This document shows positions 46,301 to 62,985 of a DNA stretch of 64,000 bases, one piece after another. The DNA is from Hyphomonas sp. (lineage in GTDB: Bacteria > Pseudomonadota > Alphaproteobacteria > Caulobacterales > Hyphomonadaceae). Every line of letters starts with the position of its first letter. Position 1 is the first letter of the stretch. A program made the position numbers and the translations under genes. The notes under the pieces were generated by a model. The model did not search any database and was not told where the DNA came from. It worked only from the letters and a program-made list of their open reading frames with translations. The stretch lies in the NCBI RefSeq assembly GCF_965284475.1, contig NZ_OZ260087.1:2645646-2709645 (forward strand). Reading direction: 5' to 3'.

Positions 46301-49300
46301 CACTTCGGCGTCGAGGCTATGCGATGCTGACGGATTGAGCGTTCTGAATGACTTCACCGCAACCGGAAGCCAGGTCGTTGCGGCATCTCCGGCGGCGGCA
46401 ATGACGCAAAGTTGTACGCCCGCGTCCAGAGCCGCTGGATGAACAAGGTGGGCGGACCCGGTCAGCGCCTCTGGCAATGTTACCCGCCCGGTAGCTGCAG
46501 CTGGCGCAATCTTGACGTCTGAGAGCAGCTGGAATGATGCGCCGAAATCAGCACCGATTGTGCGGAAACGCGAAATCACTGCCGAATCTGTAACGGTCGT
46601 CTTGCTATCGTTGAAGGCTTTATCGTCTGTCAGGAACTGGCTGTCGGGTTCGTATGGTCGAGCTGGAGCAAGGTCTGCCGAGACGCTGGCCTCAGCAATC
46701 GCCCTGCCTTCGGAAGTGCCGACATCATCATCCAGCAAGTTGAGCTTCAGTACCCAGACGTTTTTGCGGAGCTGTGCGACAACCTGCCAACGCGATTGGA
46801 GCTCGCCAGGTCCGCCTAGCGGTAGCGGCGCCAACTGGGTGAAATCATCAAGCCGCGCCGTCTGGCCGCCGATAGCCCGCGCAGCGGCGGCCAGCAGTTC
46901 CATGACTGCTGTCGCCGGTGCAATGGCCTGACCAAAAATCCGGTGCTCAAGCAACCAGCCCAAACTCGCTGTCTGGCCACCTTCGTAAACGACAAGGTCG
47001 TCGGCCGTGATGTTCAGGCGGTAACCCAGCAAAGGGTGACCGGAATCGATGCCGGCCTGTTGTAGCACCGACGTATTCACGTCCCGCCAGTGCCGTTGAC
47101 GCTGCCATGGGTAATTGGGGAGAGAGACAACGCGTCCGCCTGAAGGCTGCAGGGCGGACCATTTCGGAGAATATCCGGTTTCGAATAGCTTCGCTGCACA
47201 TTCGGCTATCACCTCCCGGTCGAGCCGGCCGCGTCGCAAGGTCGGAACGATTGGCCGGTCCGGTGCTCCGGCCTGGTCCATGCTCGCTGCAATCGAAGCA
47301 GACAGGACAGGGTGCGGGCCGATCTCGACATAAACAGTCCGCTCGTCGCCTGCTGTTGCTTGCATCGCCTTGGCAAAAAGAACTGGCGCGCGAATGCCGC
47401 GTGCAAAGTGCGCCGCGTCGACCTGCTCGACAGGCTTGCCCGTGACGGTGGAGATGGCACGTATGCCGGTTGCCGGATGTGAGGTCACCGCGCGAACAGT
47501 TTCAACCAGGCGCTTCTCAAACGGCGACATCTGTTCGCTGTGAAATGCGTAGCGTACGGGTAGGCGGTGCAGTCCAATGCCTTGCGTCTTGAGCGTATCC
47601 AGCAGCGCGTCCAGAGCAGCGGATTCTCCGGATATCACCGTCTCCCCCGGCGCATTAATTGCGGCGATGCTGAGCGCCTTGCCGAACGGGGCAATCGCTT
47701 CCGCCGCCGCCGCAGAATCCACCAACACCGAAGCCATGGCACCTGTACCGTCAGCGGCCTGCATGATCTCGCCTCTATGACAGGCGATACGGATAGCATC
47801 CTCGAGAGACACGATACCGGCTGATTGCAGGGCTGCGATTTCGCCCACGCTATGGCCGATGACGGTGTCGGGTTCCAGGTTCCAGGATTTCAGCAAAGCG
47901 ACCAGCCCGGTTTGCAATGCGGTCAGCGCCGGCTGTGCAATCGCAGTCTCCTGCAATCGGCTATCGACGTCCTCCCGCGCGAGTTCTTCCAGGAGTGACC
48001 ACCCAGCATATTGCCGAATCAGCCCGTCACATGTCTCAAGGTGCTTGGCAAAAACGGGCTCGCAGGCGGCCAGCGACATGCCCATGCGTGCCGTTTGGGG
48101 GCCCTGACCACAGAACACAAAGCAAATCTGTGGGCAGGGCGCTTCAATGGCTTTTGCGCTACGCTCTGCCAATTTCTGGGCGAGGGCGGTCCGGCTCGTC
48201 GCCGACACGGCGATGCGATGCGCATGATGCGACCGCTTCTCTGCCGCTGTGTGGCAGAGATCCGTCAGGGAAGGAGAGGGGGAGGCGAGTACGCCCTGCC
48301 AGTCTGCCGCGCTTTGCAGCAACCCTTCCGGTGTGCGTGCCGAAAGCGGCAACGTCCAGATGTCACTGTCTCGTGCATCAGATTTTGGAGCATCGACTTT
48401 TGGCCCGGCCTCAAGGATGACATGCGCGTTCGTGCCCCCGACGCCAAACGAGCTGACACCGGCGAGAGGCGTGCCGATTGACCTGGGTAATGGCTGCCGC
48501 CTGGTCGCGATTTCAAAACGCGTCCGGTCCAGGTTAATGTGCGGGTTCAGCTTCTTGAAACCGGGCTGTGCTGGCACTTCACCCTTGTTCAGGACCAGTG
48601 CCGCCTTGATGATGCCAGCCACGCCGGCTGCCGCCTCAAGATGCCCGATATTGGCCTTTACGCCGCCCAAGAGGCAGGTCGGGCGGTCAGCCGCTTTTGC
48701 GCCAATTGTTTCAGTCAGCGCATCTACTTCGATCGGGTCACCCAGGATCGTACCGGTGCCGTGGGTTTCGACGTAGACAATATCATCTGCGTCAACCCGC
48801 GAGGTTGCGACAGCTTCGCGCACCAGGGCTGCCTGGGCCTGCACATTGGGAGCGGCAAGCAAAGTCGACTCCCCGTCCTGGTTCACAACCGAACCACGAA
48901 TCACAGACCATATACGGTCGCCGTCCGCCAAGGCGTCGGACAGGCGCTTCAGGGCAATCACCCCGCACCCTTCGCCCCGCCCGAAACCATCGGCGCTCGC
49001 GTCGAATGTCTTGCACAGGCCATCAGGCGCCAGAAATCCGAGCCGCGACATGCTGACCATCAGTTCCGGTGCAAGGATGGCCGAGACCCCGCCTGCCAGA
49101 GCCACATTGCTCTCGCCGGTGCGGAGACTTTGGCAGGCCAGGTGCACGGCAACGAGCGAAGACGAGCACGCAGTGTCGATGGAAACGCTCGGACCGCGAA
49201 GATCGAAAATGTATGACAGCCGGTTCGCCAACACGCTGTGTAGCGTGCCCGTCAGGGTTCGCTGGTCCATGGCGGCGGGGTCGCGGTAGAGCATCTGTGC

Positions 49301-49780
49301 ATAGTCATTGTGATAACTGGCTACAAACACCCCGGTGCGTGAACGCCGCAGGTCTTCGAATCGAATCCCGGCGTCCTCCATTGCCTGAACAGCCACTTCA
49401 AGGAAAATCCGCTGCTGGGGATCCATCTGATCGGCTTCGCGGGGCGGAATACCGAAATATCCTGAGTCAAACGTGTCGACAGACTCAAGGAAAGACGCAC
49501 CAGCGGCGGTGCTGAGTCCGACAGCATCCGGGCCCTCTCCGTGCCATTTTCGAGCATCCCACCGGTCTGGTGGTACGGGCGATACCGTCGTGCGACTTTC
49601 CAGCAAAAACGACCAGAAACTCTCAGGGTCGTTGCCGCCTCCGGGGAACCGGCATCCAATTCCGACAATCGCGATCGGATCAGCTGCGAGTGTCGCGCCA
49701 ACTTTTTCGCGTGCACTGCGCGCCATCAAGGCAAGTTTTATGGAAGAAACTCGATTTGTATGCGTTTCAGCGTGGCTCAT
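43334..49780 (-). CDS. Modular type I PKS 'B': KS-AT(YAFH, malonyl-like)-DH-ER-KR(B)-ACP
   Basis: KS DTACSSS/HGTGT/NIGH; AT GHSVG and YAFH; DH EHRIFGQAIAP; ER HAGAGGVG; KR ALRD and GQSLYAAAN; ACP GLDSL. Confidence 0.92.
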   Translation of the reverse strand: MSHAETHTNRVSSIKLALMARSAREKVGATLAADPIAIVGIGCRFPGGGNDPESFWSFLLESRTTVSPVPPDRWDARKWHGEGPDAVGLSTAAGASFLESVDTFDSGYFGIPPREADQMDPQQRIFLEVAVQAMEDAGIRFEDLRRSRTGVFVASYHNDYAQMLYRDPAAMDQRTLTGTLHSVLANRLSYIFDLRGPSVSIDTACSSSLVAVHLACQSLRTGESNVALAGGVSAILAPELMVSMSRLGFLAPDGLCKTFDASADGFGRGEGCGVIALKRLSDALADGDRIWSVIRGSVVNQDGESTLLAAPNVQAQAALVREAVATSRVDADDIVYVETHGTGTILGDPIEVDALTETIGAKAADRPTCLLGGVKANIGHLEAAAGVAGIIKAALVLNKGEVPAQPGFKKLNPHINLDRTRFEIATRRQPLPRSIGTPLAGVSSFGVGGTNAHVILEAGPKVDAPKSDARDSDIWTLPLSARTPEGLLQSAADWQGVLASPSPSLTDLCHTAAEKRSHHAHRIAVSATSRTALAQKLAERSAKAIEAPCPQICFVFCGQGPQTARMGMSLAACEPVFAKHLETCDGLIRQYAGWSLLEELAREDVDSRLQETAIAQPALTALQTGLVALLKSWNLEPDTVIGHSVGEIAALQSAGIVSLEDAIRIACHRGEIMQAADGTGAMASVLVDSAAAAEAIAPFGKALSIAAINAPGETVISGESAALDALLDTLKTQGIGLHRLPVRYAFHSEQMSPFEKRLVETVRAVTSHPATGIRAISTVTGKPVEQVDAAHFARGIRAPVLFAKAMQATAGDERTVYVEIGPHPVLSASIAASMDQAGAPDRPIVPTLRRGRLDREVIAECAAKLFETGYSPKWSALQPSGGRVVSLPNYPWQRQRHWRDVNTSVLQQAGIDSGHPLLGYRLNITADDLVVYEGGQTASLGWLLEHRIFGQAIAPATAVMELLAAAARAIGGQTARLDDFTQLAPLPLGGPGELQSRWQVVAQLRKNVWVLKLNLLDDDVGTSEGRAIAEASVSADLAPARPYEPDSQFLTDDKAFNDSKTTVTDSAVISRFRTIGADFGASFQLLSDVKIAPAAATGRVTLPEALTGSAHLVHPAALDAGVQLCVIAAAGDAATTWLPVAVKSFRTLNPSASHSLDAEVRLIANGCNGTLIADISYRDPAGLLIAEITGLRFAKATQATLAAGIAAPVQLYATRWQAEAREAHSPVAPVQSWLVMSGDKQGEELTDALKAITDDVRVLGLKADEGELSAALNWLSAAPEPRQIIDLTGLADGAGPAEAVITTLEHVQAIAAHAPSASFAVVTRGAFTTDGDASAPSVQGAAIQGFAATASLEHPEMAIRGIDLDPAADMSSANEIAAALSAQLGRKGPTKLALRGEDWLSPHITPARLAGTSSYRAVRRRDSAGIDGLTMETLERNKLSKGQVRVAVRHAGLNFRDVLSTLGMLDGTLPPLGVECAGEVIEVSPEVTAFKAGDRVFGYAPGAFSEEVIVPAEWMTLIPDQITDEDAAGLTVAFGTALYGLDSIARLKAGERVLIHAGAGGVGLAAVQIALARGAEVFTTAGSERKRDMLRSLGVNHVFDSRALDFEKQVLDATQGEGVDVVLNSLAGDFILASVRSLSANGRFLELGKRNLLSQDEFSAIRPAASYCVYDLGQIIEAEPARLKPVLDIVLTGIADKKFSPLPTRVFGIEQTEEAMRFMASAKHVGKVVLRVPPRLTSTVRGNASYWITGGLGGLGLYTARWLTDSGAQHIVLSGRHAASESAKAAIAGIEKTGARVHVLTCDAGDHASNVKALAVIKDTMPPLRGIIHAAGALRDGPVLTRQREDVEAVFRGKLAGAESLDQLTRDLPLDFFVCYSAAGTTLGAPGQSLYAAANTALDALAARRRHAGYPASSIAWGSWSGAGMLAELAANGRDVWAQRGLGNITPEIGFPQLEQMLRSGMPNAMAMVIDWRRFAATAPEALDVRPFSEFMKGPTLTGREPVRAQEQTLGEKLKIASPAERRAKLRDCVETAARHIIGIQTDMNIDPDKPLKDIGLDSLMAVEMRNELARGIGLRLNATLLFDFPTLNRLVEHLDRALSPAKPETSTVSMRDADDLDNLSDQELAALLEEELAASGISRDAKREPQS

Positions 49781-52700
49781 TTGCGCCCTCCAAGTAGGGC
49801 CGCAAGGGCTTCATCTTCGCTCAGGCCCTCGATTGTTGAGAAGCTTGTCTCAAGGTCGTCGGACGAAAGAGCCGCTTCCGGAACCGGTGCAGAGGTTGGT
49901 GTCTGCGCGCCATGTGGACTGGCGCACAGGAAGTCGATGATTTTACTGGCTGTCGGATAAGTCCAGGCTAGCGTGGCAGGCAGAGGGCGCCCCACCAACT
50001 TTTCAAGCGCGTTCCGCAATTCGATGCCCATCAGTGAGTTCAATCCCAAGTCCCCGAGAGGTCGAATTGGGTCAAAGTCCTCAGGGCGCAGCTTGAGGAC
50101 CTTCGTCACGATCGCAGGAACAAAGGTCATCGCTGCCTTCCGGCGGTCGGTCAGGGACAGACTTTCGAACGACGCGTTGTCAGAAGACGTGTCGACGCCC
50201 CCGGCGAACAGCTCTTCGAATAGATGGTACGCGCGCCCTGGCCGGCTTTTGCTGAATGCCGACCAGTCCATTCGGAACGCGCTCACGGCAGGCATTGACT
50301 GGCCGATGACCCAGTCAAGCAAGGCATCTCCTTCGCGCGGATCCATGGCGAGTTCGCCATGTTCCTCGAATTCGTCTGCGACATGATCAAGCGCAGCGCG
50401 ACCGAGTTGGTTCCACGGGCCCCAAGCGACGCTCACAGCGGCTTGTCCACGCGCATGCCGATCATACGCCAGGGCATCCAGGCCGCAGTTTGCGGCAGCA
50501 TAAGCCGCCAGCCCCTGGTGGGGAACAAACGCCATCGTGGAGGAATACAGAACGAACAGGTCAACGTCCGGAAATTCACGGTCAAGTATTCGCGCGCCAT
50601 CCAGTTTGGGGGCAATGGCCAGATTGAAACTGTCTTGGTTCGTGTCAGCTGCAAGCCGCGTATCATAAGCTGTTGCCAGATGGATCACCCCCTTGACGGA
50701 CGGCCGCATTTCGGATTCGCGCGCTAAAAGAAATGCCCGCAAGGCGTCGGCATCCGCAATATCAAGCGCCGCGATCTCCACCGAAACGCCGGAAGCCTCT
50801 AGCGCAACAACGCCTGCGATGCGGTCCGCGTCATCGGTTCCTTCGGCGACACGCCCCCAATGCTTGCGAGGCGGAAGAGGGCGCCGCGACATCAGGATGA
50901 TGTGGCGTGCACCGGCGTTTGCAAGGACACCTGCTGCCCGCAGCCCCAGTGCACTCAGGCCGCCGGTAATCAGGTAGGCGGCGTCCTTCTTCAATTCGGG
51001 ACCCGTCTTGTGAGCGCCAGTGTTCATGAACTGGCGCAAGCGCGGGACAAACCAGCTCCCTTGTCGGTACGCGGCCTCAGGCTCCGCGCTATCGGCCAGG
51101 CACTGGCTCGCCAGTGCGTCCGCCTGTTCGGCAAGCGGAAAGTCGGGGTCGGAATCAATGAGGCGAAAACTGAATTCGGGATGCTCATCGGCAACGACCC
51201 GAAAGGCACCCATCATGGACGCCTGATCGATAGCCACACGCTGTTCCGGGCCACCTGCAACTGTGGCGCCTTGCGTTACGATTATGACCCTCTGAGACCC
51301 GACACTGTTCTCGCGCAGGAGCTGAAGCAGCCTGATGGGCAAGAACCCGGCACCCAGGTCTGGTGCGATCGACACGATTCCATGATAGGTGTGACCCGAA
51401 GCGAGCGCACTATGAGCGGCCTTAAATTCCAGGCAATCGACCTCGGCGCCTGTCTTCTTCAGCGCGGCAGCCAGTGCACTCGCATCTATCATCTCTGGGC
51501 TGATGACCAACCAGTCCTGCTCTTGCGCCGAGGTTGCGTCCTTGTGCTCTACCGGCTTCCAGGCAAGCTGGTGGAGCATGTCGCGCGCGTCTTCGGACAG
51601 GTGCGGGCGTTTGCGGTTGTTGCTTGTATGCGTCCCCTCGGCTGCCTCGTGCCAATGCCGGGAACGTTGCCAGGGATAGTGAGGCAGCGGCACATCGTGA
51701 CGCGGCGTGCCTGAATAGGCGCCCCAGTCAATATCAGTGCCGCGTGTCCAGAGTTTAGCCATGCCTTCGGCGATGATATCCATTGCCGGGCTGTCGCGGC
51801 GCTCACTGGCAGCCAGGACAGCATCCGCATCCCCGTGGCTGAGAATCTGCTCGACCGATGTCAGCAGTACGGGATTGGGACCAAGCTCGATGAATGCACC
51901 GGCGCCTGCCTCCAGCGCTGCTTCGACAGCGTCAAGGAATTGCACGGGTTCGCGCAAATTTCGTGCCCAATAGCTGCCATCCAGTTGCAGGCCGGCCGTT
52001 GCGCTACCCGTTACGGTCGAGAGCATTGGTACGCTGAATTCGGCGGGGGTGATGTCATGAAGCTGGGATGCGAGCTCAGGCGCCAGCGCCGCCATTTGCG
52101 GACCATGGGACGCAACGTCCACCTTGACCTTGCGACAGAAAATGCCGTCGCCTGAAAGCTTTTCCAGAACGGTATCCAGTGAAGCGACCTCACCAGAAAT
52201 GATGCTTGCGCGGGGGCTGTTGATTGCGGCAACACAGAGTTTGCCGGAGTAGGGATCCAGAATCGGCTCGAGATCCGCTCGCGGGAGTTCCACCAGTGCC
52301 ATGCCGCCCTCGCCGCTGGTGCGCGCCATCAGGGCGCTACGCGCAACCACTACCCGCATTGCATCCTTCAGGCTAAGAATTCCCGATATGGCCGCCGCAG
52401 AGACCTCGCCCATGCTGTGGCCGATTGTCAGCATCGGGTGAACGCCAAATGAGCGCCACAGTTGCGCATAGCTGATCGCGAGTGCGACGAGTACGGGCTG
52501 AATCACCCCGATTTCGCTGAGGCGATGCCCGGCGTCGCTGTCTCCGAGCTGAAGCTGTTCCTGCAGAGACCAGTCCACCAGTGGCGCAAGAGCCTGCTCA
52601 CACGCATCGATGGATTGCCTGAAGACCGGTTCGGCTGCGATGAGCGATCGTGCCATGCCAGTCCATTGTCCGCCTTGCCCCGGCGCGACAAATGTCACGA

Positions 52701-54327
52701 CCGGCGAAGTGTCCGTCCAGACCTGCCCACGAATCGCATCGTCATCACCGAAGCGGAAGCGTTCAAGGGCCGCGATCAGTTCATCGCGGTCATGGCCAAC
52801 AAATGCGGCGCGATTTGTGAGGGCTGTCCGGTTGCCGGCCGCCGCGGCGCAAATTTCGTGAACGGATATACCAGTCTCAGTACGGAGTGTTCTTTCATAC
52901 AGCCGGGCAAGTTCACGCAGGGCGTCGTGGCTCTCGGCGGAGATTGGCAGGATGGCGGGACGAGAACAGTTCGCCTGCGTGATCGGTCCCAGTTTGGCTG
53001 CCGGCGGGTTCTGAACAAGAAGGTGCGCATTCGATCCGGCAATCCCGAATCCACTGACGCCGGCGATCCGTTCGGGGCCATCCCAAAGCTGGCGTTCGCG
53101 CGCAATTTCGAGCGGCGCGGAATCCCAGTCGATGTCCGGGTTCGGAGTGTCAAAGTGGAGGCTGGCCGGCACATGTCCCATCTTGACGGCCAAAGCTGCC
53201 TTGAGCAGTCCGGCCATGCCGGCCGCGCCTTCCGTATGTCCGATGTTCGTCTTGACCGAGCCAACGTGGAGAGCCTGGCTGCGGCCGCCCCCAAGGACGG
53301 CACTGATCGCGCCGAGTTCTACGGGGTCACCGGAACGTGTCCCTGTGCCGTGCGCCTCGACATAGCCAACGGACGCCGCTGGCAAGTTCGCATCAATAAG
53401 CGCCTGGCGGAGCAATGCTTCCTGCCCTTTGCGGCTGGGTGTCCCGAAAGAGCCGCTTGACCTGCCATCATTGTTGATGGCGCTACCGCGAATGACGGCA
53501 TGTATCCGGTCGCCATCCGCCAGCGCGCGGTCCAGCCGCTTGAGCAGAACGAGGCCGGCTCCTTCACTGCGAACATAACCATCGCCAGAAGCGTCGCCAA
53601 ACTTGCAGCGCCCATCTGGTGCCATCATGCGGCTCTGCGAGTAGCCGACGGTGATGTGGGGGCTGAGGATGACATTGACCCCCGCCGCAAATGCGAGATC
53701 GGACTCTCCCGAGCGAAGGCTTTGTATGGCGAGATGCACGGCTGTTAGCGATGACGAACAGGCTGTGTCGAGTGTCAGGCTCGGGCCCATCAGGTTCAGG
53801 AAGTGCGACACACGTCCGGATGTCGTGTATCTGCCGCTTCCCGTCGTCATTTCGAAATCCGTGATCGTTGGATCGCTGAGGAGCCGCATCTCGAAATCGC
53901 TCAGCCATTGGCCGACATAGACCCCGACGGATTGTCCAGCCAAGGCTTTCGCGTCCAGGCCCGCATCTTCAATCGCTTCCCAGGCTGTCTCCAGCAAGAG
54001 CCGCTGCTGCGGGTCCATGCGCTCCGCTTCACGAGGTGAAATATGGAAAAATCCCGCGTCGAACTGCTCGATACCCTCAAGGTATCCGCCGAAGCGCGTC
54101 ATGATCCGGCCAGGCGTCGCCGGCGTCTGCGAATAAAGCCCGTCTACGTCCATGCGGGTTGGAGGGATTTCACCCACAGCATCCCGACCTTCACACAACA
54201 TCTTCCAGTAGGCATCAGGCGTATTCGCGCCGCCGGGAAAGCGGCAGGCCATCCCGATGATTGCTACTGATCGAGTTGGTTCAGGCGCCATATCTTTCAC
54301 CCTCGACAAAGCTGAGCTTGCGCTCAC
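49777..54327 (-). CDS. Modular type I PKS 'A': KS-AT(VASH, methylmalonyl-like)-KR(A-like)-ACP; start is GTG 54327 or ATG 54291
   Basis: KS DTACSSS/HGTGT/NIGH; AT VIQP, GHSMG and VDVASH; KR TGGLSALG with no LDD and GLAAYAAAN; ACP GLNSL. Confidence 0.9.
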   Translation of the reverse strand: MSASSALSRVKDMAPEPTRSVAIIGMACRFPGGANTPDAYWKMLCEGRDAVGEIPPTRMDVDGLYSQTPATPGRIMTRFGGYLEGIEQFDAGFFHISPREAERMDPQQRLLLETAWEAIEDAGLDAKALAGQSVGVYVGQWLSDFEMRLLSDPTITDFEMTTGSGRYTTSGRVSHFLNLMGPSLTLDTACSSSLTAVHLAIQSLRSGESDLAFAAGVNVILSPHITVGYSQSRMMAPDGRCKFGDASGDGYVRSEGAGLVLLKRLDRALADGDRIHAVIRGSAINNDGRSSGSFGTPSRKGQEALLRQALIDANLPAASVGYVEAHGTGTRSGDPVELGAISAVLGGGRSQALHVGSVKTNIGHTEGAAGMAGLLKAALAVKMGHVPASLHFDTPNPDIDWDSAPLEIARERQLWDGPERIAGVSGFGIAGSNAHLLVQNPPAAKLGPITQANCSRPAILPISAESHDALRELARLYERTLRTETGISVHEICAAAAGNRTALTNRAAFVGHDRDELIAALERFRFGDDDAIRGQVWTDTSPVVTFVAPGQGGQWTGMARSLIAAEPVFRQSIDACEQALAPLVDWSLQEQLQLGDSDAGHRLSEIGVIQPVLVALAISYAQLWRSFGVHPMLTIGHSMGEVSAAAISGILSLKDAMRVVVARSALMARTSGEGGMALVELPRADLEPILDPYSGKLCVAAINSPRASIISGEVASLDTVLEKLSGDGIFCRKVKVDVASHGPQMAALAPELASQLHDITPAEFSVPMLSTVTGSATAGLQLDGSYWARNLREPVQFLDAVEAALEAGAGAFIELGPNPVLLTSVEQILSHGDADAVLAASERRDSPAMDIIAEGMAKLWTRGTDIDWGAYSGTPRHDVPLPHYPWQRSRHWHEAAEGTHTSNNRKRPHLSEDARDMLHQLAWKPVEHKDATSAQEQDWLVISPEMIDASALAAALKKTGAEVDCLEFKAAHSALASGHTYHGIVSIAPDLGAGFLPIRLLQLLRENSVGSQRVIIVTQGATVAGGPEQRVAIDQASMMGAFRVVADEHPEFSFRLIDSDPDFPLAEQADALASQCLADSAEPEAAYRQGSWFVPRLRQFMNTGAHKTGPELKKDAAYLITGGLSALGLRAAGVLANAGARHIILMSRRPLPPRKHWGRVAEGTDDADRIAGVVALEASGVSVEIAALDIADADALRAFLLARESEMRPSVKGVIHLATAYDTRLAADTNQDSFNLAIAPKLDGARILDREFPDVDLFVLYSSTMAFVPHQGLAAYAAANCGLDALAYDRHARGQAAVSVAWGPWNQLGRAALDHVADEFEEHGELAMDPREGDALLDWVIGQSMPAVSAFRMDWSAFSKSRPGRAYHLFEELFAGGVDTSSDNASFESLSLTDRRKAAMTFVPAIVTKVLKLRPEDFDPIRPLGDLGLNSLMGIELRNALEKLVGRPLPATLAWTYPTASKIIDFLCASPHGAQTPTSAPVPEAALSSDDLETSFSTIEGLSEDEALAALLGGRK

Positions 54328-55139
54328 GGACTACTGGGTGTTGCAGCTGCGGGCATTTTTGCTTCCAGAACGTCCTGGATATGCAAAATGAGTGCCGAGC
54401 GCTGGTCTTCCAGATAGAAATGCCCTCCGTCGAACATCTGAAGACGAAAGTCCTGTTCGGTCCAGGATCCCCACCCCGCGAGAAGATGTTCGGGAACCAG
54501 CCTGTCGTCCTTGCCGCCAAGAGCGCTGATGGCGATCGGTAACCGGCGGGGAGTGGCGCGCTCGATCCTTTCAAGCGTGCGAATATCGGCCTTCAGCGTT
54601 GGCAACAGCAGTTCCAGGACTTCCGGTGCTTCAATGATTTCGCGCGGAATGCCGCCATAGCGCTTGTTCACCTCTTCGACGAACGTCATGTCATCGAGGT
54701 GTGAGAGCGGGCCAACGGGGCTGGGCAAGTTGGGCGGTTGCCGTGCGGAAAGAAAGAGGTGCATCGGGGCGTGCATTTCCTGCCGTACGATCTCGGAGGC
54801 AAGTTCCGAAGCGAAGACAGCGCCCATACTGTGTCCAAAAAAAGCGTAAGGCCGGTCTGTCAGGGTGGACAATTCCGGAAGAATGGATCGAACGAGTTCA
54901 GGAAAACTGTCCAATGGAGGCTCTGCAAGCCGATTGGCACGGCCGGGGGGCTGGACGGGCACGATTTCCAGCCAGGCCGGGGCCTGGGATTGCCATGCCC
55001 GATACATCGCGGCGCCATAGCCAGCGCACGGAAAACAGAACAGGCGGATTCGCATTTCAGCCGTAGGCGAGGAACGGAAAAACCAGCTTGCAGCCTGCTG
55101 CATGCCACCACGGTTGGGGGCCATGTTACGGATATCCAT
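54324..55139 (-). CDS. Type II (editing) thioesterase
   Basis: RLFCFPCAG, VQPPGR, GHSMG nucleophile motif, LLLPTLKAD and GGHFYL. Confidence 0.9.
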   Translation of the reverse strand: MDIRNMAPNRGGMQQAASWFFRSSPTAEMRIRLFCFPCAGYGAAMYRAWQSQAPAWLEIVPVQPPGRANRLAEPPLDSFPELVRSILPELSTLTDRPYAFFGHSMGAVFASELASEIVRQEMHAPMHLFLSARQPPNLPSPVGPLSHLDDMTFVEEVNKRYGGIPREIIEAPEVLELLLPTLKADIRTLERIERATPRRLPIAISALGGKDDRLVPEHLLAGWGSWTEQDFRLQMFDGGHFYLEDQRSALILHIQDVLEAKMPAAATPSSP

Positions 55140-55353: not shown

Positions 55354-56832
55354 TTAAACGCGCCTCCCGCGTGGCCGCAAAATGCCTGTGATCCGACGTG
55401 CAATGGCGCGCAGGATGCGGGCAAATTCCATGTGGAGTGGGTGCTTGAGCAGGTAGAGGGAAGCAATCCAGCTCACACCTGCGACACCGACCGCCAGAAG
55501 GCCCTCCGCAAGGCCGACATTTGCGCTGCCACCAGAATAGTGAACGATTGCAAGCGGGCCGGCAACAGTCGCGGCGGTCGCAACCGCACTTCGGGAGAGT
55601 GCGCGTCCGATATCCAGCCATGTAAATCGTATCACATAAGCCTGCACGAACCAGGTCGACAGGACCACGTTGATCGCAACAATAGGCCATGTGGCCCACG
55701 CGACGGCATGGATTCCATACTGTGCGCTGATGACAATTGTCGGGAGTACGATACACGCCTGCAGGATCGCGAGCAGGAATGCACGTCGCACCGCACCCTG
55801 GGCAATCAGGATGGGATAGTTCAGTCCGGGGGGAAAATTCAGGAGCAGTCCACCTGCGATAATCTGCACTAGTGGAATGGTTTCGAGCCAGTCATTACCC
55901 AGGAACAGGCGGATCAGGGGGGCGGCAAGGACGATGATCAGGCCGAGGCAGGGCCAGATCAATCCGCTAATCCGCTCGACGGCAGCAAGGTAGTATTTCC
56001 TGAGGTCACTCTTTTCGCGGGCGGCCTCAGAGAAGGCCGGCAGGGCCGCAGCGCTGACGCCGGCCATGACGGTGCGTTCCGGAAACTGGGCGATCATTGA
56101 TGCGCGGTTCAACAGGCCGACCATGGCCGGCGGCATGAAATTGCCAACGGCCATAACGGAGAGGACTTCCGTTGCGCGCTGCACAATGCCGGTGCCGCCA
56201 CTGAACAGGCTGAATGACAGGACGTCTTTCCAGGCGCTGAACGATGGCCGGAAAATTTCGAAACTCGGGCGGAAGTAGAGCAGCAACAATGTGCCGACCA
56301 ACGCCGAAACAACCTGCGCGTATGCGAAACTCAGATAACTGGCGCCAGCGATGGCTGTGCCGATCAGGACCGCTGAATTGAAGACTGTCGATGCGATGTT
56401 GATTACAGCGAGCTTTCCAAATGCGAAGTCGCGCGCAAGCAGCGCATGTAGCGGGTAGACGATGGCACCCACCGCAAACGGAACAGCGCAAATCTTAAGA
56501 TAGAGATCCAGGCCCGGCGAATTGAGCAGGCGAGCCAGGGCCGGTGCTGACAGAACCATGCAGGGGAGGATGGCGAGGGTCAGGAAAAGATTCAGGGTAA
56601 ACGCAGCGCGCAGTTTCGCGAGCGTCAGCTCCTTTGCCTGGATAATGTAAGCTGACGAGCCCACGTCGCGTAATGTGTTTGCCATGAGCAGAACGGCTGC
56701 GCCCAGAACTGTAACGCCGAATTCTGCCGGATTGATCAGACGGGCAACAATTGCCGTTGTGACCAGCGTGATCGCTGTCGATACATACTTGTCAGCCGTG
56801 GCGACAATGACGGCAGTCCTGATTTTATCCAT
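55354..56832 (-). CDS. Wzx-type oligosaccharide flippase (PST family, MOP superfamily; 'polysaccharide biosynthesis protein')
   Basis: 492 aa with 12-14 TM segments. ARLINPAEFG, ALLARDFAFGKL, VGLLNRA, LPAFS and LFLGNDW match the PST flippase pattern. GGGGGAAG precedes the start. Confidence 0.85.
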   Translation of the reverse strand: MDKIRTAVIVATADKYVSTAITLVTTAIVARLINPAEFGVTVLGAAVLLMANTLRDVGSSAYIIQAKELTLAKLRAAFTLNLFLTLAILPCMVLSAPALARLLNSPGLDLYLKICAVPFAVGAIVYPLHALLARDFAFGKLAVINIASTVFNSAVLIGTAIAGASYLSFAYAQVVSALVGTLLLLYFRPSFEIFRPSFSAWKDVLSFSLFSGGTGIVQRATEVLSVMAVGNFMPPAMVGLLNRASMIAQFPERTVMAGVSAAALPAFSEAAREKSDLRKYYLAAVERISGLIWPCLGLIIVLAAPLIRLFLGNDWLETIPLVQIIAGGLLLNFPPGLNYPILIAQGAVRRAFLLAILQACIVLPTIVISAQYGIHAVAWATWPIVAINVVLSTWFVQAYVIRFTWLDIGRALSRSAVATAATVAGPLAIVHYSGGSANVGLAEGLLAVGVAGVSWIASLYLLKHPLHMEFARILRAIARRITGILRPRGRRV

Positions 56833-56927: not shown

Positions 56928-57758
56928 TCAGAGTATGTAGAAGTACTTGAAATCGTATGAACCATGCGGGGCTGCCACGGCGGCGCGGTAACCCTGAACC
57001 GGTGGCACGTCCCATAGGCCGTACGCATTGATGGCGTCAGCTGCGCCCCAGGCCCGCAGGACAGCAGCCGGCGCGTCAGGATCGACCCTGACTTCGAAAC
57101 AATTCAGTGGAATTTCAAGGCCTCGACCGTCGGCCTTGATCAGGGCCTCCTTGCGCGTCCAGCAGGCAAAGAAGCCATCCAGGCGCCGCATCTCATCAAG
57201 TGCTGAAAGTTCGACATATTCGCCAGGCGCGAATGTGTCCTGGGCGAGCCTCTCCATTCGGTCCAGCGTGCGGATTTCTTCAATGTCCACGCCGATACTG
57301 CCCTCTGTTGCCACCGCCAGAAGGCCCCAGCTGCCAGAGTGGGACAGATTGAAACTGAGTGGTCGCGCATGTTCTGGCGTCTGCAGGCGGGGTTTGTTGT
57401 TGGTGCCGATGGCGAAAGTCAGGTCTTTTGCCGCGCCGGCACCACAAGCGCTCAGGACGATCCGCATGGCGCCATGTGCGGCGATAAATCGTGAGCGGTG
57501 TTCTGCGAAATGGAAGCGCTCGGCGCGCTGACGCTCATCGGCGCTCAATACATCCATAAGTTGTTCCATCTCCAAGGGCGGTTCTGCCGTGTTGAATAAC
57601 CAGATATGCACGGAACCAGGCTCGGGCCGCCACGAAGGGTGCGTGCCGGACGTTTCAGTCGCTGATCTGGAAAGCTGGGAAATAGAAACGGTCTGGAAGG
57701 CCCGAGAACCTAGGTCAGAATGGGGGATTCGCCCGTTTCTGGGTACTTCTGCTGTCAC
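56928..57758 (-). CDS. Sfp-type 4'-phosphopantetheinyl transferase (start uncertain)
   Basis: LSADERQRAERF, NKPRL, FNLSHS, IGVDIE and FFACWTRKEALIKADGRGL. Confidence 0.92.
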   Translation of the reverse strand: MTAEVPRNGRIPHSDLGSRAFQTVSISQLSRSATETSGTHPSWRPEPGSVHIWLFNTAEPPLEMEQLMDVLSADERQRAERFHFAEHRSRFIAAHGAMRIVLSACGAGAAKDLTFAIGTNNKPRLQTPEHARPLSFNLSHSGSWGLLAVATEGSIGVDIEEIRTLDRMERLAQDTFAPGEYVELSALDEMRRLDGFFACWTRKEALIKADGRGLEIPLNCFEVRVDPDAPAAVLRAWGAADAINAYGLWDVPPVQGYRAAVAAPHGSYDFKYFYIL

Positions 57759-58011: not shown

Positions 58012-61000
58012 ATGGACGTCGCCCGATTTATAGAAGATCTTTCCAGGGTCGGCGTCACACTCTGGACGTCCGATGGCAAGATTCGCTTTCGCGGTCCCAA
58101 AGGCGCGCTTGGCGAAAAAGACAAGTTCACGATACGCGAAAACCATGCGGCAATCGTGGAAGTGCTTGCCAATTGGCAAGTTGTTCGCGACCTGCCACTT
58201 GCTGATGGCCAGCGATCCCTCTGGTTTGTTCACCGCCAGGCTCCGCTAAGCCCGACCTACAATTTCGGAACGGCCATACGGGTACGGGGCCCTGTTGAGC
58301 CAATGGCACTGAAGACGGCCTTCCAGAAGGTAGTGGAGCGCCATGCTGCCCTGCGTGCCAGCTTTCCGGTCGTGGCGAATAATCCCGTTCAGAGAATTCC
58401 GCACGATCAAAAGGTGCATCTGGACTATCACAGGATTGATGGCAGCGCCGATGCGGAGGTCATCGCGCATGTGCTGAGCGTGCACAGGCGCCCTTTCAAC
58501 CTGGCGACTGGTCCGGTTTCCCGATTGGCTTTGTTCCGGGTGGCACCAAACGATCATGTCATCCTTTTTGGAGCGCACCACATCGTATGTGACGCGACAG
58601 GGGGTGCGACAGCCTGCCATGATCTCAAACAATTCTACATCGAAGGGGTTGCAGGCAAGCCGGCTGAGCTGACGCCCCGGACTGCCGATTTCCCGGATTT
58701 TGTCGATTGGCAGCGATCAGTACTGTCAGGCCCTCAAGGCGAGGCGTTGCTGGCGCATTGGCAAGAGCGACTGAAGCCTCCGCTTCCTGTGCTTGCCCTT
58801 CCGACTGACAGGCCAAGGCCCGTCAACAGACAGTTCCGTGGTGACACCTTGCAGAGGGTTTTTTCATCTGAACAGATAGCGGCGCTCGATGCGCTGGCAA
58901 CGCGCACGCGCGCGACCCGATCTGCAATATTGATTGCACTTATGGCGGCAATGCTCGGGCGTGTTTGCGATCAGGATGATGTCGTGATCGGGACCCCCTT
59001 CTTCGGGCGCGCGGATGAGCGGTTCGAAACGACAGTCGGTCATTTTGCAAACCCGCTTCCTATCCGCCTCACCGTTTCGCCCGCATGTTCCTTCGATGAC
59101 CTGATTATTGAGGCACGCGAGCGGCTGCTCGACGCGCTCGACAATCAGGATATGCCGCTTCTGCGACTTGTAGATGCCCTCAATCCGCCCCGCGATTCCA
59201 CGCGGATGCCCTTTTTTGATGTTCTGTTCACGTTTCTTTTGTTCGATCATCTGACGGGCGGTTTGCAGTCAGAAAATGACGCTGAAACACGCGCCATTTT
59301 CCCGGTCGAGCCATTATTGTTTCCGCTAATGGAGGGTCAGTTTGACCTGTCCGTCCGGTTCGAGGAGATGAATAACGGTCTCACAATGAACTGGAGCTTT
59401 GATACCGATCTGTTCGACAAGTCGACAATCGAGACTTTCGTGAACATTTTTTCGGAACTGGTAACGGAATTTTCAAGGGATTCATCAATTCCTGTGCGGG
59501 CCTACAACGCGGCAAGACCCTTGCAAGGCATAAAGCCGGAACAGGGAGAGCCCGAAATGGAAGTGCATGCACTGTTTGGCAGACTGGCGGACAGGGGAGT
59601 CGCCTTGTCGCTTGATGGTGATCAGTTGCGCATCAAGGCTCCAAAAGGCGCAATCGGCACGTCATTACGCGACGAACTGGTCGCCATGAAACCGGCCATC
59701 GTGGACATGCTCAGGTCCGAAGCTACCGGCTTCCGGTCGCGTTCGCCCCAGAAGGCCAATCTTCCCCTGTCATATGCGCAGCAGAGACTCTGGTTTCTGA
59801 ACCGGCTTGATCCAACCAGTACCGCTTTCAATGTCGCGGCCGGCGCCTGGATGAGTGGTCCTCTCAATCCGAAACTGATCGCCGAAGCGTTCAGGCTCCT
59901 TGCGCAGCGCCACGACGCGTTGCGCATGCGGTTTACAGAGCGCGAGGGCAAGCCCGTTGCTGAAGCGGTCGACGACCTGATGCCCCATTTTGAGTATCTG
60001 GACGTCGAGCATGTCGCGTCGGAACTTCGCAGGCAGGAAGCTGAGCGCATTGTCGATGAGCGAATACGCCGGCCGTTTGATCTCGCGACCGGCCCCCTGT
60101 GCGGCTTTACGCTCATCCGTCTGTCAGAGGATCGGTACGCATCACTGCTGCTCGCCCATCACATTATTGTTGATGGGTGGTCGATGGCCGTCGCACACCG
60201 TGAGGTCGTCGAAATCTACGACGCACTCCTTGAGGGGCGCGAGCCGGGCCTGCCCGAGGTCAAGGCGCAGGCCACGGATCATGCCCGCCGTGAGCGCCGC
60301 ATGGCCGTGTCGCCTGAATGGGCAGAACACATTGATTTCTGGCGCGAAGAACTCAGTGGCGCACCTGCGGTCATTGAGCTGCCTACGGATCGCAGGCGTC
60401 CTGCCAACCAGACCTTCAATGGCGGAAGACTGACTGAGCGGTTCGATGCGAAACTGCTGGCGGACCTGAACGCCCTCGCGCGATCCGAGGGCGTCACACT
60501 GTTCATGCTGCTGATGGCCGGATGGGCGGCAACGCTTTATCGCTATAGCGGACAGACGGACATTGTCCTGGGCTCGCCACATGCCAATCGCAACCATGCC
60601 GATCAGGAGAGCATGGTCGGTTGCCTGATCAACAACATGGTCGTGCGCTGCCGTGTCGACGGGTCCTTGAGCTTTAGCGACCATCTTGCAAATGTCCGTA
60701 GCGCGACCCTCGGATCGCTTGAGCATAGCGAACTTCCGTTCGATCTGCTGGTCGACACCGTCAATCCGGAACGCAGCGCCAGCCACGCTCCGATATTCCA
60801 GACGCTTTTCAGCTTGATGACGTTCCCGAAGATCGAACATGGCTTCAAGGGCACCGAAGTTGAGCCGATGATCCCAGGAACGGGTGCCTCAAGGTATGAC
60901 TTGTCTCTGGACTGTGTGGAGTTCGGCGGCGAGCTCCTGACGCACTACGAGTTTGCGACGGACCTGTTTGACACCGACACGATTCTGAGATTGCATCGTC

Positions 61001-62985
61001 ATTACCAAACCCTGATGCGCGCGGCGATTGCCGATCCCTTGGCGCCCGTCAAATCATTGCAAATGCTGACGCGGGATGATGCGGCAGAAATTGCCAATTC
61101 GAACGCGCGGACAGTCAAAGAGTTTGATCGTAGCGCAACCACGCTGGATATGATCGAGTCTTGCGTCCGGGAGGTTCCGGACCAAGGGGCCGTAACCGAT
61201 GCGCACGGAACACTGAGCTATGCCGAACTCGACGTGCGCGCAAATCGCCTGGCGCACCTGCTGCACAACAACGGTGTGGGTCGCGGCAGTCTGGTCGCGG
61301 TAAGTCTCGAGCGCAGCGTGAATCTTCCAATGGCGCTTCTTGCGGTCTGGAAGGCCGGCGCGGCCTATCTGCCACTTGATCCGAAACACCCGCAGGAACG
61401 CATCAACAGCATTGTTGCCGATGCCGGTGTAGACTTGGTCCTGACAGAAACAGCCTCGGCAGCGCCGTTCGGCGACAACCAGCCAGTGCTGGCGCTCGAT
61501 CAGTTGGAAAGTCGCCTTGACGCGATGCCGCATACGGCACCGGACCGCGAGACAACGCCTGAAGATCTGGCCTATGTGATCTATACGTCAGGCTCCACCG
61601 GGCGCCCGAAAGGGGTTGAAGTCGAGCACCGCAATCTCGCGGCTTTCCTGGTCGCCATGCAGGAGGAACCTGGAATCCGTGAGGGACAAACGCTCCTCGC
61701 CGTGACAACCCCGTCGTTCGACATCTTTGGACTGGAAGCATGGCTACCACTTTCATCGAAGGCGCGTATGGTTATCGCATCGCGTGAAACGGCGCTGGAC
61801 GGGCGTGCTCTGGCCGACCTTATGGACTCAGAAAATGTCGACATTCTTCAGGCCACACCCGCGACATGGAATGTTCTGATCGAGACAGGCTGGCAGGGAC
61901 GTGGGGGCCTGAAGGCGCTTTGTGGCGGCGAAGCGCTGCCGCTGGCCCTGGCCGACGCACTTCTGCAGCGCGGCTGTGATCTCTGGAATATGTATGGCCC
62001 GACCGAGACGACGATCTGGTCTTCAGTGCAACATATCGAGAAGGCCGATGATGCTATCAGCATCGGCAAGCCCATCGCGAATACGCGCATGTATATCCTG
62101 GATGACCAAGGCGTGCCGGTACCGCCTGGTGCGATTGGCGAGCTTTGTATCGGCGGTGAAGGCGTCACGCGCGGATATCGCGGCCGGCAGGATCTCACGG
62201 ACGAACGCTACCTCTCGCTGGACCTTCCCGGTCACGACAAGGAACGCATTTACCGCACCGGAGATTTCGCGCGTGAAACAGTCGATGGCCGGCTGATTTT
62301 TCTCGGGCGTCGCGACTTTCAGGTCAAGATCCGTGGTTTTCGGATCGAACTCGGCGAGATCGAGAGTGAAATTGGCGCATTGGAGAGCGTTGCCGAGTGC
62401 GCCGTTATCGCCCACGAGCGTGCCAAAGGTGATCTCGAACTTGTCGCATACGTCGTGCCCGCAGCAGGCCGCACTGTTGAACCCGGGGCCTTGCGTGCGT
62501 CACTTCGGTCCCAGTTGCCGAACTATATGGTACCGGCGCATGTTGTTGTGCTCGACGCCCTGCCGCTAACGCCCAACCTGAAAGTTGACCGCAAAGCGCT
62601 GCCGCTGCCGCAAGTCAAGCAGGCATCGGATACGTCCGCTGGCAACGTCGTCATGTCACCTGCTGAGCAAAGCGTGGCCGAGATCTGGTGCGCGGTGCTT
62701 GGCCGGACCCAGGTCGGACTTGAAGATAACTTCTTTGATATTGGCGGGCATTCCATGCTGTTGGTTCGCTTGCACGAACGGCTCCGGAATGATCTTGGTG
62801 CGACGATGGCACTGATAGAACTTTTCCAGCGCACGACAGTCGCGCAGCAGGCTGCCGCCATTCCGGGCGGTGCGGGATCCGGGCTGGTGGGGTCCGCTTC
62901 TGCTACGCAGCCGGCTCAGCCCGTCCAGTCAGACCGCCTCACACGGGCAAAAAAACGAGCGGAGCGCATCCGGCATGGCCAGTAA
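58012..62985 (+). CDS. NRPS: betaHD(TubC_N)-C-betaHD(TubC_N)-C-A(Gly)-PCP
   Basis: Two beta-hairpin docking-like segments (LSRVGVTLWTSDGKIRFRGPKGA; LADRGVALSLDGDQLRIKAPKGA). C motifs HHIVCDA and HHIIVDG. A-domain YTSGSTGRPKG and NMYGPTETT, with hand-read code DILQLGMIWK. PCP FFDIGGHS. The C-terminal tail is basic. Confidence 0.92.
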   Translation: MDVARFIEDLSRVGVTLWTSDGKIRFRGPKGALGEKDKFTIRENHAAIVEVLANWQVVRDLPLADGQRSLWFVHRQAPLSPTYNFGTAIRVRGPVEPMALKTAFQKVVERHAALRASFPVVANNPVQRIPHDQKVHLDYHRIDGSADAEVIAHVLSVHRRPFNLATGPVSRLALFRVAPNDHVILFGAHHIVCDATGGATACHDLKQFYIEGVAGKPAELTPRTADFPDFVDWQRSVLSGPQGEALLAHWQERLKPPLPVLALPTDRPRPVNRQFRGDTLQRVFSSEQIAALDALATRTRATRSAILIALMAAMLGRVCDQDDVVIGTPFFGRADERFETTVGHFANPLPIRLTVSPACSFDDLIIEARERLLDALDNQDMPLLRLVDALNPPRDSTRMPFFDVLFTFLLFDHLTGGLQSENDAETRAIFPVEPLLFPLMEGQFDLSVRFEEMNNGLTMNWSFDTDLFDKSTIETFVNIFSELVTEFSRDSSIPVRAYNAARPLQGIKPEQGEPEMEVHALFGRLADRGVALSLDGDQLRIKAPKGAIGTSLRDELVAMKPAIVDMLRSEATGFRSRSPQKANLPLSYAQQRLWFLNRLDPTSTAFNVAAGAWMSGPLNPKLIAEAFRLLAQRHDALRMRFTEREGKPVAEAVDDLMPHFEYLDVEHVASELRRQEAERIVDERIRRPFDLATGPLCGFTLIRLSEDRYASLLLAHHIIVDGWSMAVAHREVVEIYDALLEGREPGLPEVKAQATDHARRERRMAVSPEWAEHIDFWREELSGAPAVIELPTDRRRPANQTFNGGRLTERFDAKLLADLNALARSEGVTLFMLLMAGWAATLYRYSGQTDIVLGSPHANRNHADQESMVGCLINNMVVRCRVDGSLSFSDHLANVRSATLGSLEHSELPFDLLVDTVNPERSASHAPIFQTLFSLMTFPKIEHGFKGTEVEPMIPGTGASRYDLSLDCVEFGGELLTHYEFATDLFDTDTILRLHRHYQTLMRAAIADPLAPVKSLQMLTRDDAAEIANSNARTVKEFDRSATTLDMIESCVREVPDQGAVTDAHGTLSYAELDVRANRLAHLLHNNGVGRGSLVAVSLERSVNLPMALLAVWKAGAAYLPLDPKHPQERINSIVADAGVDLVLTETASAAPFGDNQPVLALDQLESRLDAMPHTAPDRETTPEDLAYVIYTSGSTGRPKGVEVEHRNLAAFLVAMQEEPGIREGQTLLAVTTPSFDIFGLEAWLPLSSKARMVIASRETALDGRALADLMDSENVDILQATPATWNVLIETGWQGRGGLKALCGGEALPLALADALLQRGCDLWNMYGPTETTIWSSVQHIEKADDAISIGKPIANTRMYILDDQGVPVPPGAIGELCIGGEGVTRGYRGRQDLTDERYLSLDLPGHDKERIYRTGDFARETVDGRLIFLGRRDFQVKIRGFRIELGEIESEIGALESVAECAVIAHERAKGDLELVAYVVPAAGRTVEPGALRASLRSQLPNYMVPAHVVVLDALPLTPNLKVDRKALPLPQVKQASDTSAGNVVMSPAEQSVAEIWCAVLGRTQVGLEDNFFDIGGHSMLLVRLHERLRNDLGATMALIELFQRTTVAQQAAAIPGGAGSGLVGSASATQPAQPVQSDRLTRAKKRAERIRHGQ

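Follow-up and report, generated by a model that had tools for sequence, protein, structure and literature searches.

The flippases of the PST family, exemplified by WzxC and WzxE of Escherichia coli (TC 2.A.66.2), which serve colanic acid and the lipid III of enterobacterial common antigen (ECA) respectively, are taken to mark glycan pathways, and automatic annotation names them accordingly. MurJ, the lipid II flippase of the MVF family, has two extra C-terminal helices which hold the lipid tail. ClbM, a MATE protein of the MOP superfamily, is encoded inside the hybrid nonribosomal peptide synthetase (NRPS) and polyketide synthase (PKS) cluster of colibactin and moves an acylated precursor of the peptide through the inner membrane. 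In WzxE, binding of the diphosphate is ascribed to paired arginines and an arginine cluster at the C-terminus, and recognition of the sugars to carboxylates and polar residues (PMC11706664). In the current analysis we have considered a stretch of 64,000 nucleotides of Hyphomonas sp., referred to as the window (positions 2,645,646-2,709,645 of a complete, single-contig genome of 3.43 Mb), in which an open reading frame (ORF) at 55354-56832 on the minus strand encodes a PST/Wzx-type protein of the MOP superfamily, 492 residues long, among the genes of a PKS-NRPS assembly line. A full-text search of the literature turned up no paper that describes a PST/Wzx protein within a PKS or NRPS cluster.

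The flippase is inherited as a part of this hybrid PKS-NRPS cluster. The branch of PST proteins to which it belongs is monophyletic and has left polysaccharide loci for those of assembly lines. The unit that recurs along the branch comprises an assembly line terminated by a carrier protein, two proteins of the alpha/beta-hydrolase fold referred to here as Hyd1 and Hyd2, and the PST protein.

The ORF begins with ATG, preceded by a Shine-Dalgarno sequence (GGGGGAAG) 5-6 nt upstream, and its homologues align with it from M1. The families Polysacc_synt_3 (PF13440; 167.9 bits, cut-off 23) and Polysacc_synt (PF01943; 75.3 bits, cut-off 28.2) of the Pfam database have been assigned to the protein, and no other Pfam family, MatE (PF01554) and MurJ (PF03023) included, was found even when the limit was relaxed to E<=10. 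Its top match in NCBIfam is the WzxC-type MOP flippase model NF007773, which covers residues 17-475 with 168 bits and thus falls below the equivalog cut-off of 273 bits. The sequence identity with WzxC and WzxE of E. coli is 20% and 18%, and a profile search of the sequences in the PDB gave no match. The top named relative is from Hyphomonas oceanitis (84% identity), and the database names of the relatives found are of the kind 'O-antigen/teichoic acid export' and 'oligosaccharide flippase'.

An AlphaFold (AF2) model built with 20 homologues (pLDDT 86.8, pTM 0.83) predicts 14 transmembrane (TM) helices and a C-terminal amphipathic helix, and the modelled arrangement of two six-helix lobes with two extra C-terminal helices is that of the MOP fold. 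In a Foldseek comparison of this model, MurJ (template modelling score, TM-score, 0.74) and WzxE (0.78 on the target) rank above the MATE pumps, which score about 0.5-0.59. The identity of the protein as a MATE or MurJ member has been ruled out, since neither family matches at E<=10 and genes of both kinds are present elsewhere in the genome: the MatE matches lie at places other than the flippase locus, and MurJ is encoded at 947764-949077 (324 bits). The first-pass annotation, which had described a PST/Wzx-type and not a MATE protein, on the same strand as the core assembly-line genes and flanked by them, is borne out by these searches and by the arrangement of the locus, where a 4'-phosphopantetheinyl transferase (PPTase) lies on one side and a type II thioesterase (TEII) with a PKS operon on the other. 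The protein is a PST family member and is not an orthologue of WzxC or WzxE. It is also not filed here as a demonstrated Wzx, because the genomic hallmark of the Wzx/Wzy pathway, namely an initiating phosphoglycosyltransferase (PGT), glycosyltransferases (GTs) and a Wzy polymerase beside the flippase, was looked for and is not present at this locus.

The distribution of related proteins was followed in genomes and metagenomes. A scan of metagenomes gave 80 loci, the contexts of which were scored by tblastn with a limited set of markers (C, A and KS domains, Hyd1, Hyd2, PPTase, TEII, ten GTs, PGT and exosortase), on which the context labels rest. A maximum-likelihood tree of 95 PST flippases from the metagenome and genome loci, rooted on WzxC of E. 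coli, places all the proteins with an assembly-line context (42 of 42) in one clade of 46 with support values of 100 (UFBoot) and 96 (SH-aLRT). For the remaining four rows of the clade, under 2 kb of sequence is available on the flank that usually holds the hydrolases, and these rows are uninformative. The sister clade of 33 rows, with 20 glycan contexts and no assembly-line context, and the next outgroups, wherever the flank was sufficient, belong to glycan loci. The window flippase falls inside the clade of 46, which is itself nested among the flippases of glycan loci; the earlier proposal that this gene belongs with the assembly line has thus gained a phylogenetic basis.

In a sample of 401 genomes of Alphaproteobacteria one relative (37.5% identity) is encoded beside an NRPS followed by Hyd1 and Hyd2, while the seven weaker relatives examined in the same sample (27-33% identity) are situated beside GT2 genes or an exosortase. 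Three relatives from the protein database, one of them from an Aliidongia metagenome-assembled genome (MAG), all adjoin an NRPS and then two hydrolases, and the relatives with the NRPS-Hyd1-Hyd2 arrangement in Aliidongia-like and other MAGs share 36-39% identity with the window flippase. When the small proteins of 28 long clade loci were clustered all against all, only PST, Hyd1 and Hyd2 were found to be widely shared, TEII and PPTase being common to the subfamily of the window and one other lineage. A drop in identity from 46% to 30% in a word-indexed search had given the appearance of an isolated subfamily, which is an artefact, as an exhaustive search with hidden Markov models (HMMs) reveals a continuum of relatives.

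One soil member of the clade (L040, 6425-9838) has, before the PST gene, a gene encoding a fusion of MFS, acyltransferase and AMP-ligase regions that resembles the LplT/Aas lysophospholipid transporter and re-acylase. This fusion hints at a tie to the remodelling of membrane lipids.

The cluster in which the window flippase is encoded, including the genes that lie past the end of the window, has the following organisation.

17596-23991, minus strand: PKS F, KS-AT-DH-ER-KR-ACP, with which the minus-strand operon ends (Pfam).
23925-24797, minus strand: small polytopic membrane protein with about 10 hydrophobic segments and a weak resemblance to EamA/DMT (Pfam EamA 26.3 bits, below the cut-off of 28.2; hydropathy).
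24794-31417, minus strand: PKS E, KS-AT-DH-cMT-KR-ACP (Pfam).
31414-38979, minus strand: PKS D, KS-AT-DH-cMT-ER-KR-ACP (Pfam).
38976-43337, minus strand: PKS C, KS-AT-cMT-ACP (Pfam).
43334-49780, minus strand: PKS B, KS-AT-DH-ER-KR-ACP (Pfam).
49777-54327, minus strand: PKS A, KS(Cys)-AT-KR-ACP, without a loading module (Pfam; active site DTACSS).
54324-55139, minus strand: TEII (Pfam Thioesterase, 144 bits).
55354-56832, minus strand: PST/Wzx-type MOP flippase of 492 residues with 14 predicted TM helices (Pfam, NCBIfam, AF2 model, Foldseek, synteny, tree).
56928-57758, minus strand: Sfp/HetI-type PPTase (Pfam ACPS and AASDHPPT_N; NCBIfam HetI 144 bits, below the cut-off).
58012-62985, plus strand: NRPS 1, docking-C-docking-C-A(Gly)-PCP, divergent from the PPTase gene (Pfam; specificity code).
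62870-64000, plus strand: PKS G, KS-AT-KR-ACP, which starts in the window and continues past its end (ORFs, Pfam).
Window-equivalent 67504-70809, past the window end, plus strand: NRPS 2, docking-C-A-PCP, without a thioesterase (ORFs, Pfam).
Window-equivalent 70806-71594, past the window end, plus strand: Hyd1, alpha/beta-hydrolase fold with an Arg elbow (Pfam, NCBIfam, elbow motif).
Window-equivalent 71582-72511, past the window end, plus strand: Hyd2, alpha/beta-hydrolase fold with a Cys elbow (Pfam, NCBIfam, elbow motif).

The PPTase gene lies 95 nt upstream of the flippase gene and the TEII gene 214 nt downstream, and no intrinsic terminator is predicted in either gap. The stop of TEII overlaps the start of PKS A by 4 nt, and the next genes of the minus strand are chained by similar 4-nt overlaps. 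Translational coupling ties the EamA-like gene to PKS E and PKS F, between which it lies, and its product represents a second candidate transporter. A counterpart is present in Allosediminivita (42% identity) and a weakly conserved one in a Roseovarius MAG, and the wider clade has none.

Another transport system, comprising an RND pump of the AcrB type and a membrane-fusion protein, is encoded past the window end on the minus strand (L006 10193-14523), convergent to Hyd2. It has been ruled out as the exporter of the cluster, as it is not kept beside the cluster in any of four other loci. The N-terminal extra docking domain and C domain of NRPS 1 (motif HHIVCDA; window 58012-59560) occur only in loci of the Hyphomonas type, where the protein has 1657 residues compared with the 1142-1157 residues of the Rhodobacterales orthologues that lack them. 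About 5 kb beyond the boundary of the cluster, a topoisomerase subunit of the GyrB/ParE type (667 residues; window 10693-12696, minus strand) is encoded, probably a housekeeping ParE.

When 185,579 species were scanned with one genome per species, 10 loci with a close relative of the flippase were identified (47-84% identity). Related loci do not represent independent samples, and contigs are often short. The relatives on the Hyphomonas side are from H. oceanitis, H. pacifica and two unclassified alphaproteobacterial MAGs (68-74% identity), which adjoin in the tree. Five are from Rhodobacterales, namely Ruegeria spongiae, Oceaniovalibus, Allosediminivita pacifica, a Rhodobacterales MAG and a Roseovarius MAG, and the tenth, from a Pseudomonadota MAG (L014), nests inside the Rhodobacterales group. 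NRPS 1 and a PKS are encoded divergently beside the flippase in all the 10 loci. The PPTase gene precedes the flippase gene in nine of them, and TEII follows it in nine, the contig of the tenth ending there. Among the carriers of the cluster that are in culture are Allosediminivita pacifica DSM 29329, Ruegeria spongiae, Hyphomonas oceanitis and H. pacifica.

Allosediminivita and the Roseovarius MAG (L019 and L020) do not have the large PKS operon behind TEII; there it is situated at the opposite end of the cluster and is convergent to Hyd1 and Hyd2. The same genes are nevertheless present, so that the gene content of the cluster has outlived a rearrangement. Hyd1 and Hyd2 were found in all four of the loci that were extended, and the RND pump in none. 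The possibility that the flippase is a stray gene of an exopolysaccharide (EPS) locus, which the first-pass annotation had named as one of two outcomes that would overturn its proposal, is ruled out by this synteny together with the phylogeny. In L019 the EamA-like reading frame seems to continue into the next PKS ORF, which may represent a fusion or a wrongly called start.

NRPS 2 ends in a peptidyl carrier protein (PCP) domain, and neither a thioesterase nor a reductase is present according to Pfam. The tandem pair Hyd1 and Hyd2 (L006 8452-10157, equivalent to window positions 70806-72511) follows it directly in the place where the release domain is missing, and is for this reason likely to be the release device, with Hyd2 as the catalyst. 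The top NCBIfam match of Hyd1 is the family 'hydrolase 2, exosortase A system-associated' (TIGR03101; 100.7 bits, cut-off 202.75), and that of Hyd2 is the corresponding 'hydrolase 1' (TIGR03100; 104.5 bits, cut-off 168.45). As both the scores lie below the cut-offs and an exosortase is absent from the genome (no Exosortase_EpsH match in the complete sequence), the two proteins are relatives of these families and not members. A full-text literature search on the TIGR03100 and TIGR03101 hydrolases yielded one passing mention of TIGR03100 and almost nothing else.

The nucleophile elbow distinguishes the two proteins. Hyd1-like sequences have an arginine at the nucleophile position (G-L/M-R-L/V-G), invariant in 10 of 10 clade sequences, and Hyd2-like sequences a cysteine (G-L/M-C-S/A-G-A-D-H), invariant in 17 of 17; the window cluster has GLRVG and GLCSG respectively. 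Signal peptides are found in neither Hyd1 nor Hyd2. In a reverse test, Hyd2-like genes were identified in 20 of the 401 sampled Alphaproteobacteria, most of them in settings of the exosortase/EPS type with EpsH, PGT or GTs. The hydrolase pair is thus a wider module, of which the flippase clade is one frequent partner.

The A-domain codes were read by hand, anchoring on the motifs A4, A5 and A10. The code of NRPS 1 (DILQLGMIWK) is a glycine code and that of NRPS 2 (DIIQIGGIYK) is glycine-like, although it is left unassigned. Based on these codes and on the domain strings, the product is predicted to be an amphiphile whose anionic head is small, in which a partly reduced, methyl-branched acyl chain is followed by glycine, a beta-hydroxy C2 unit and a small amino acid.

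Residue conservation in the assembly-line clade was compared with that in the glycan-locus sister clade at the level of the alignment. The assembly-line clade has lost acidic residues at positions 14, 56, 73, 105, 122 and 350 and basic residues at 133, 354 and 398 (D14, D56, the acidic residues at 73, 105 and 122, R/K133, D350, R354 and R398), all of which are conserved at 80-100% in the sister clade. It keeps the basic residues R5, K/R15, R31, R55, R134, R243, R/K253, R272, R278 and R349, and the window flippase has in addition an arginine-rich C-terminal tail. The pattern is suggestive of a substrate which still has an anionic group and from which the sugars are gone. A transfer of the functional residues of WzxE (K17, R44, R143, R239 and R282) by alignment was dropped as untrustworthy at 18% identity.

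We propose, with about an even chance of being right, that the protein is the cluster's own flippase and moves a free amphiphilic acid, without any sugar, across the inner membrane from its inner leaflet to its outer one. PKS A to F would build the partly reduced, methyl-branched acyl chain, to which NRPS 1 would add glycine, PKS G the beta-hydroxy C2 unit and NRPS 2 a second small, glycine-like residue. The Cys hydrolase, Hyd2, would take the chain from the last carrier protein and release an amphiphilic carboxylic acid, which may then partition into the cytoplasmic leaflet. An arginine-lined cavity of the PST protein could bind the anionic head group while the groove of TM13-14 holds the tail, and the acid would be flipped to the periplasmic leaflet with neither a sugar nor a polyprenyl carrier being involved.

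Several observations weigh against this proposal. No precedent for a non-glycan substrate of a PST/Wzx protein was found in the literature, where all the members characterised so far flip glycans linked to polyprenyl diphosphate, and the arginines that are retained could equally bind a diphosphate. Both the flippase and the hydrolase pair descend from genes of EPS loci. Two NRPS-type loci with the hydrolase pair have no PST gene within 10 kb, which implies that the flippase is not obligatory for the pair, and in one of these a WcaJ-like PGT directly follows Hyd2. About four of the 46 clade members adjoin WecG, GT2 or epimerase genes, and the tblastn detection of GTs in the metagenome loci, for which few queries were used, overlooked a GT2 gene in at least one case (L059). 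In this subfamily the true exporter could be the EamA-like membrane protein encoded within the operon. The structure of the product, the order of the modules and the starter unit are also predictions from the gene sequences.

The first-pass annotation had considered that the product is joined to a lipid-linked glycan or is itself a glycolipid. A form of this idea, which we regard as the main rival of our proposal and as less likely than it, is that the hydrolase pair, instead of hydrolysing the chain, passes it on to an acceptor that is lipid-linked and produced by genes elsewhere, such as an undecaprenyl-diphosphate (Und-PP) sugar or another phosphate-bearing membrane lipid, and that the PST protein flips the conjugate. 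It retains its weight because the flippase and the hydrolases descend from EPS loci of the exosortase type, as is apparent from the top NCBIfam matches of Hyd1 and Hyd2 to the exosortase-A EPS-associated hydrolases 2 and 1, from the nearest PST relatives outside the clade, whose EPS loci include exosortase and GT2 genes, and from the company of EpsH, PGT or GTs that most alphaproteobacterial Hyd2-like genes keep. The WcaJ-like PGT after Hyd2 in one NRPS-type locus and the WecG, GT2 and epimerase genes in the minority of clade members mentioned above (beside PST in L038 and L060) point the same way, as do the arginines which the clade shares with the glycan flippases and the C-terminal tail of the window flippase, rich in arginine like the one that is essential in WzxE (PMC11706664). 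The cysteine nucleophile would suit transfer chemistry.

The locus itself argues against such a conjugate. The absence of glycosyltransferases that had been noted earlier holds: no ORF of at least 200 residues in the window has a GT domain in Pfam, neither GT nor PGT is found in the cluster or in the flanks of 10 kb on either side of the 10 related genome loci, and the nearest match in genome-wide profile searches for GT2, GT4 and Bac_transf is more than 270 kb from the cluster. No GT was detected by tblastn, with the limitation just described, in 14 of the 16 clade loci that are fully flanked. The loss of about nine charged positions of the glycan sister clade and the absence of an exosortase from the complete genome are further points against it. 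The EPS ancestry, the sugar genes of a few clade members and the kept arginines thus stand on the side of the earlier inference, and the sugar-free surroundings of the window locus and the lost charges stand on the other.

That the PST protein works like a MATE pump, expelling a soluble product or protecting the producer, we consider improbable. The MOP superfamily is shared with MATE, the Foldseek search shows some similarity to MATE structures, and PST is the only transporter conserved with the cluster. There is, however, no match to the MatE HMM at E<=10, the two extra C-terminal helices and the top structural matches are those of lipid flippases, and a product with the predicted long, reduced and methyl-branched tail should be bound to the membrane. 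It is far less credible still that the flippase is a chance neighbour, either a remnant of a polysaccharide locus or a protein serving distant glycan loci, with the EamA-like protein as the real exporter. Glycan loci without a nearby PST gene do exist at 3.13-3.20 Mb, including the only Bac_transf gene of the genome, and the EamA-like gene is coupled into the PKS operon. The co-inheritance in 10 of 10 loci across two orders and the assembly-line link in all the 42 informative clade loci bring this explanation close to refutation, and the EamA-like gene is absent from the wider clade.

The main GT-rich region of the genome extends over 3129408-3201059, with the single Bac_transf PGT at 3138210-3138788. 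Apart from the window flippase, two more PST genes have been considered. The second PST protein (495 residues, Polysacc_synt_3 278 bits) is encoded by the first gene of an operon at 208654-222453 (L008 1-11454) and is followed by an NRPS with the organisation formyltransferase-A-methyltransferase-PCP, in which the A domain is interrupted by a luciferase-like monooxygenase, and then by a PKS. In Hyphomonas sp. Mor2 the orthologue is convergent to the matching NRPS and PKS genes and lies beside GT8, GT2 and DegT genes and a further PST gene. This protein was set aside as a second assembly-line case and is taken as a canonical flippase, as its family is broad and a more distant orthologue is found at a locus with glycan genes only.

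The third PST-like gene (452 residues) lies in the region 2931347-2941264, the neighbours of which were read by eye only. By this reading they include a fatty acyl-AMP ligase, a reductase resembling NAD-dependent epimerases, a serine-palmitoyltransferase-like protein of the AONS family, an LCB5/diacylglycerol-kinase-like protein and LptF/LptG. The region looks like a sphingolipid or ceramide locus and may be another non-classical setting of a PST protein.

To return to the proposal of a free acid as the substrate, a broader and more tentative form of it, to which we would give somewhat less than an even chance, is that the whole Wzx-like PST branch has given up polyprenyl-diphosphate glycans as its substrate in favour of lipopeptide or polyketide lipids which carry no sugar and are products of assembly lines, and that it forms with the Cys/Arg hydrolase pair a portable 'release-and-flip' module, which delivers the product to the outer leaflet of the inner membrane and then to the cell envelope. 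If true, this would be the first non-glycan substrate of the PST family, and the orphan products would be envelope lipids and not secreted antibiotics. A branch tied to NRPS and PKS lines that lack a release domain, mostly without sugar genes, would represent either an undescribed class of substrate or an undescribed joining of assembly-line products to envelope glycans. A rule for genome mining may also be suggested, in which PST together with the Cys/Arg hydrolase pair marks the export and release genes of orphan clusters. The result is further suggestive of products that are lipids residing in the membrane, which would have to be looked for in cell extracts and not in supernatants.

In comparison with the known systems, the window flippase shares with WzxC and WzxE the same Pfam families, the length and 14-helix layout of WzxC, conserved arginines on TM1, 2, 4 and 8, the arginine-rich C-terminal tail and the structural match to WzxE (TM-score 0.78). 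It differs from them in the score against the WzxC model (168 bits against the cut-off of 273), in the identity of 18-20%, in the location of its gene in a PKS-NRPS cluster at a locus without an initiating transferase, glycosyltransferase, Wzy or Wzz, and in the loss by its clade of the charged positions of the glycan-locus relatives. MurJ is the best overall structural match (TM-score 0.74), the two extra C-terminal helices included, whereas the MurJ HMM does not match the window flippase and the genome encodes MurJ separately. In contrast to the MATE protein ClbM, the protein described here is of the PST family; a periplasmic peptidase like ClbP is not encoded here, and Hyd1 and Hyd2 lack signal peptides.

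A conserved four-gene cluster with NRPS, PKS, glycosyltransferase and PPTase genes is found in about half of the genomes of the Roseobacter group (PMC4337385). The window cluster resembles it as an orphan hybrid cluster with its own PPTase that occurs in marine Rhodobacterales. It is a different cluster, as it was found in only 10 species genomes, has PST, TEII and the hydrolase pair, and lacks a GT.

The exosortase-A (XrtA/PEP-CTERM) EPS cassette has an acyl-CoA ligase, an ACP, hydrolase 2 (TIGR03101), hydrolase 1 (TIGR03100) and a PST flippase in the same loci. The top models of Hyd1 and Hyd2 are those of this cassette and the nearest PST relatives outside the clade are encoded in such loci; in two loci of PST proteins outside the clade (G042 and G250) a Hyd2-like gene lies 14-17 kb away on the same contig. 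The window system differs in that both hydrolases score below the cut-offs (101 against 203 bits and 105 against 168 bits), in the lack of an exosortase in the genome and of GTs at the locus, and in having a seven-module PKS and a two-module NRPS in place of the single ligase and ACP.

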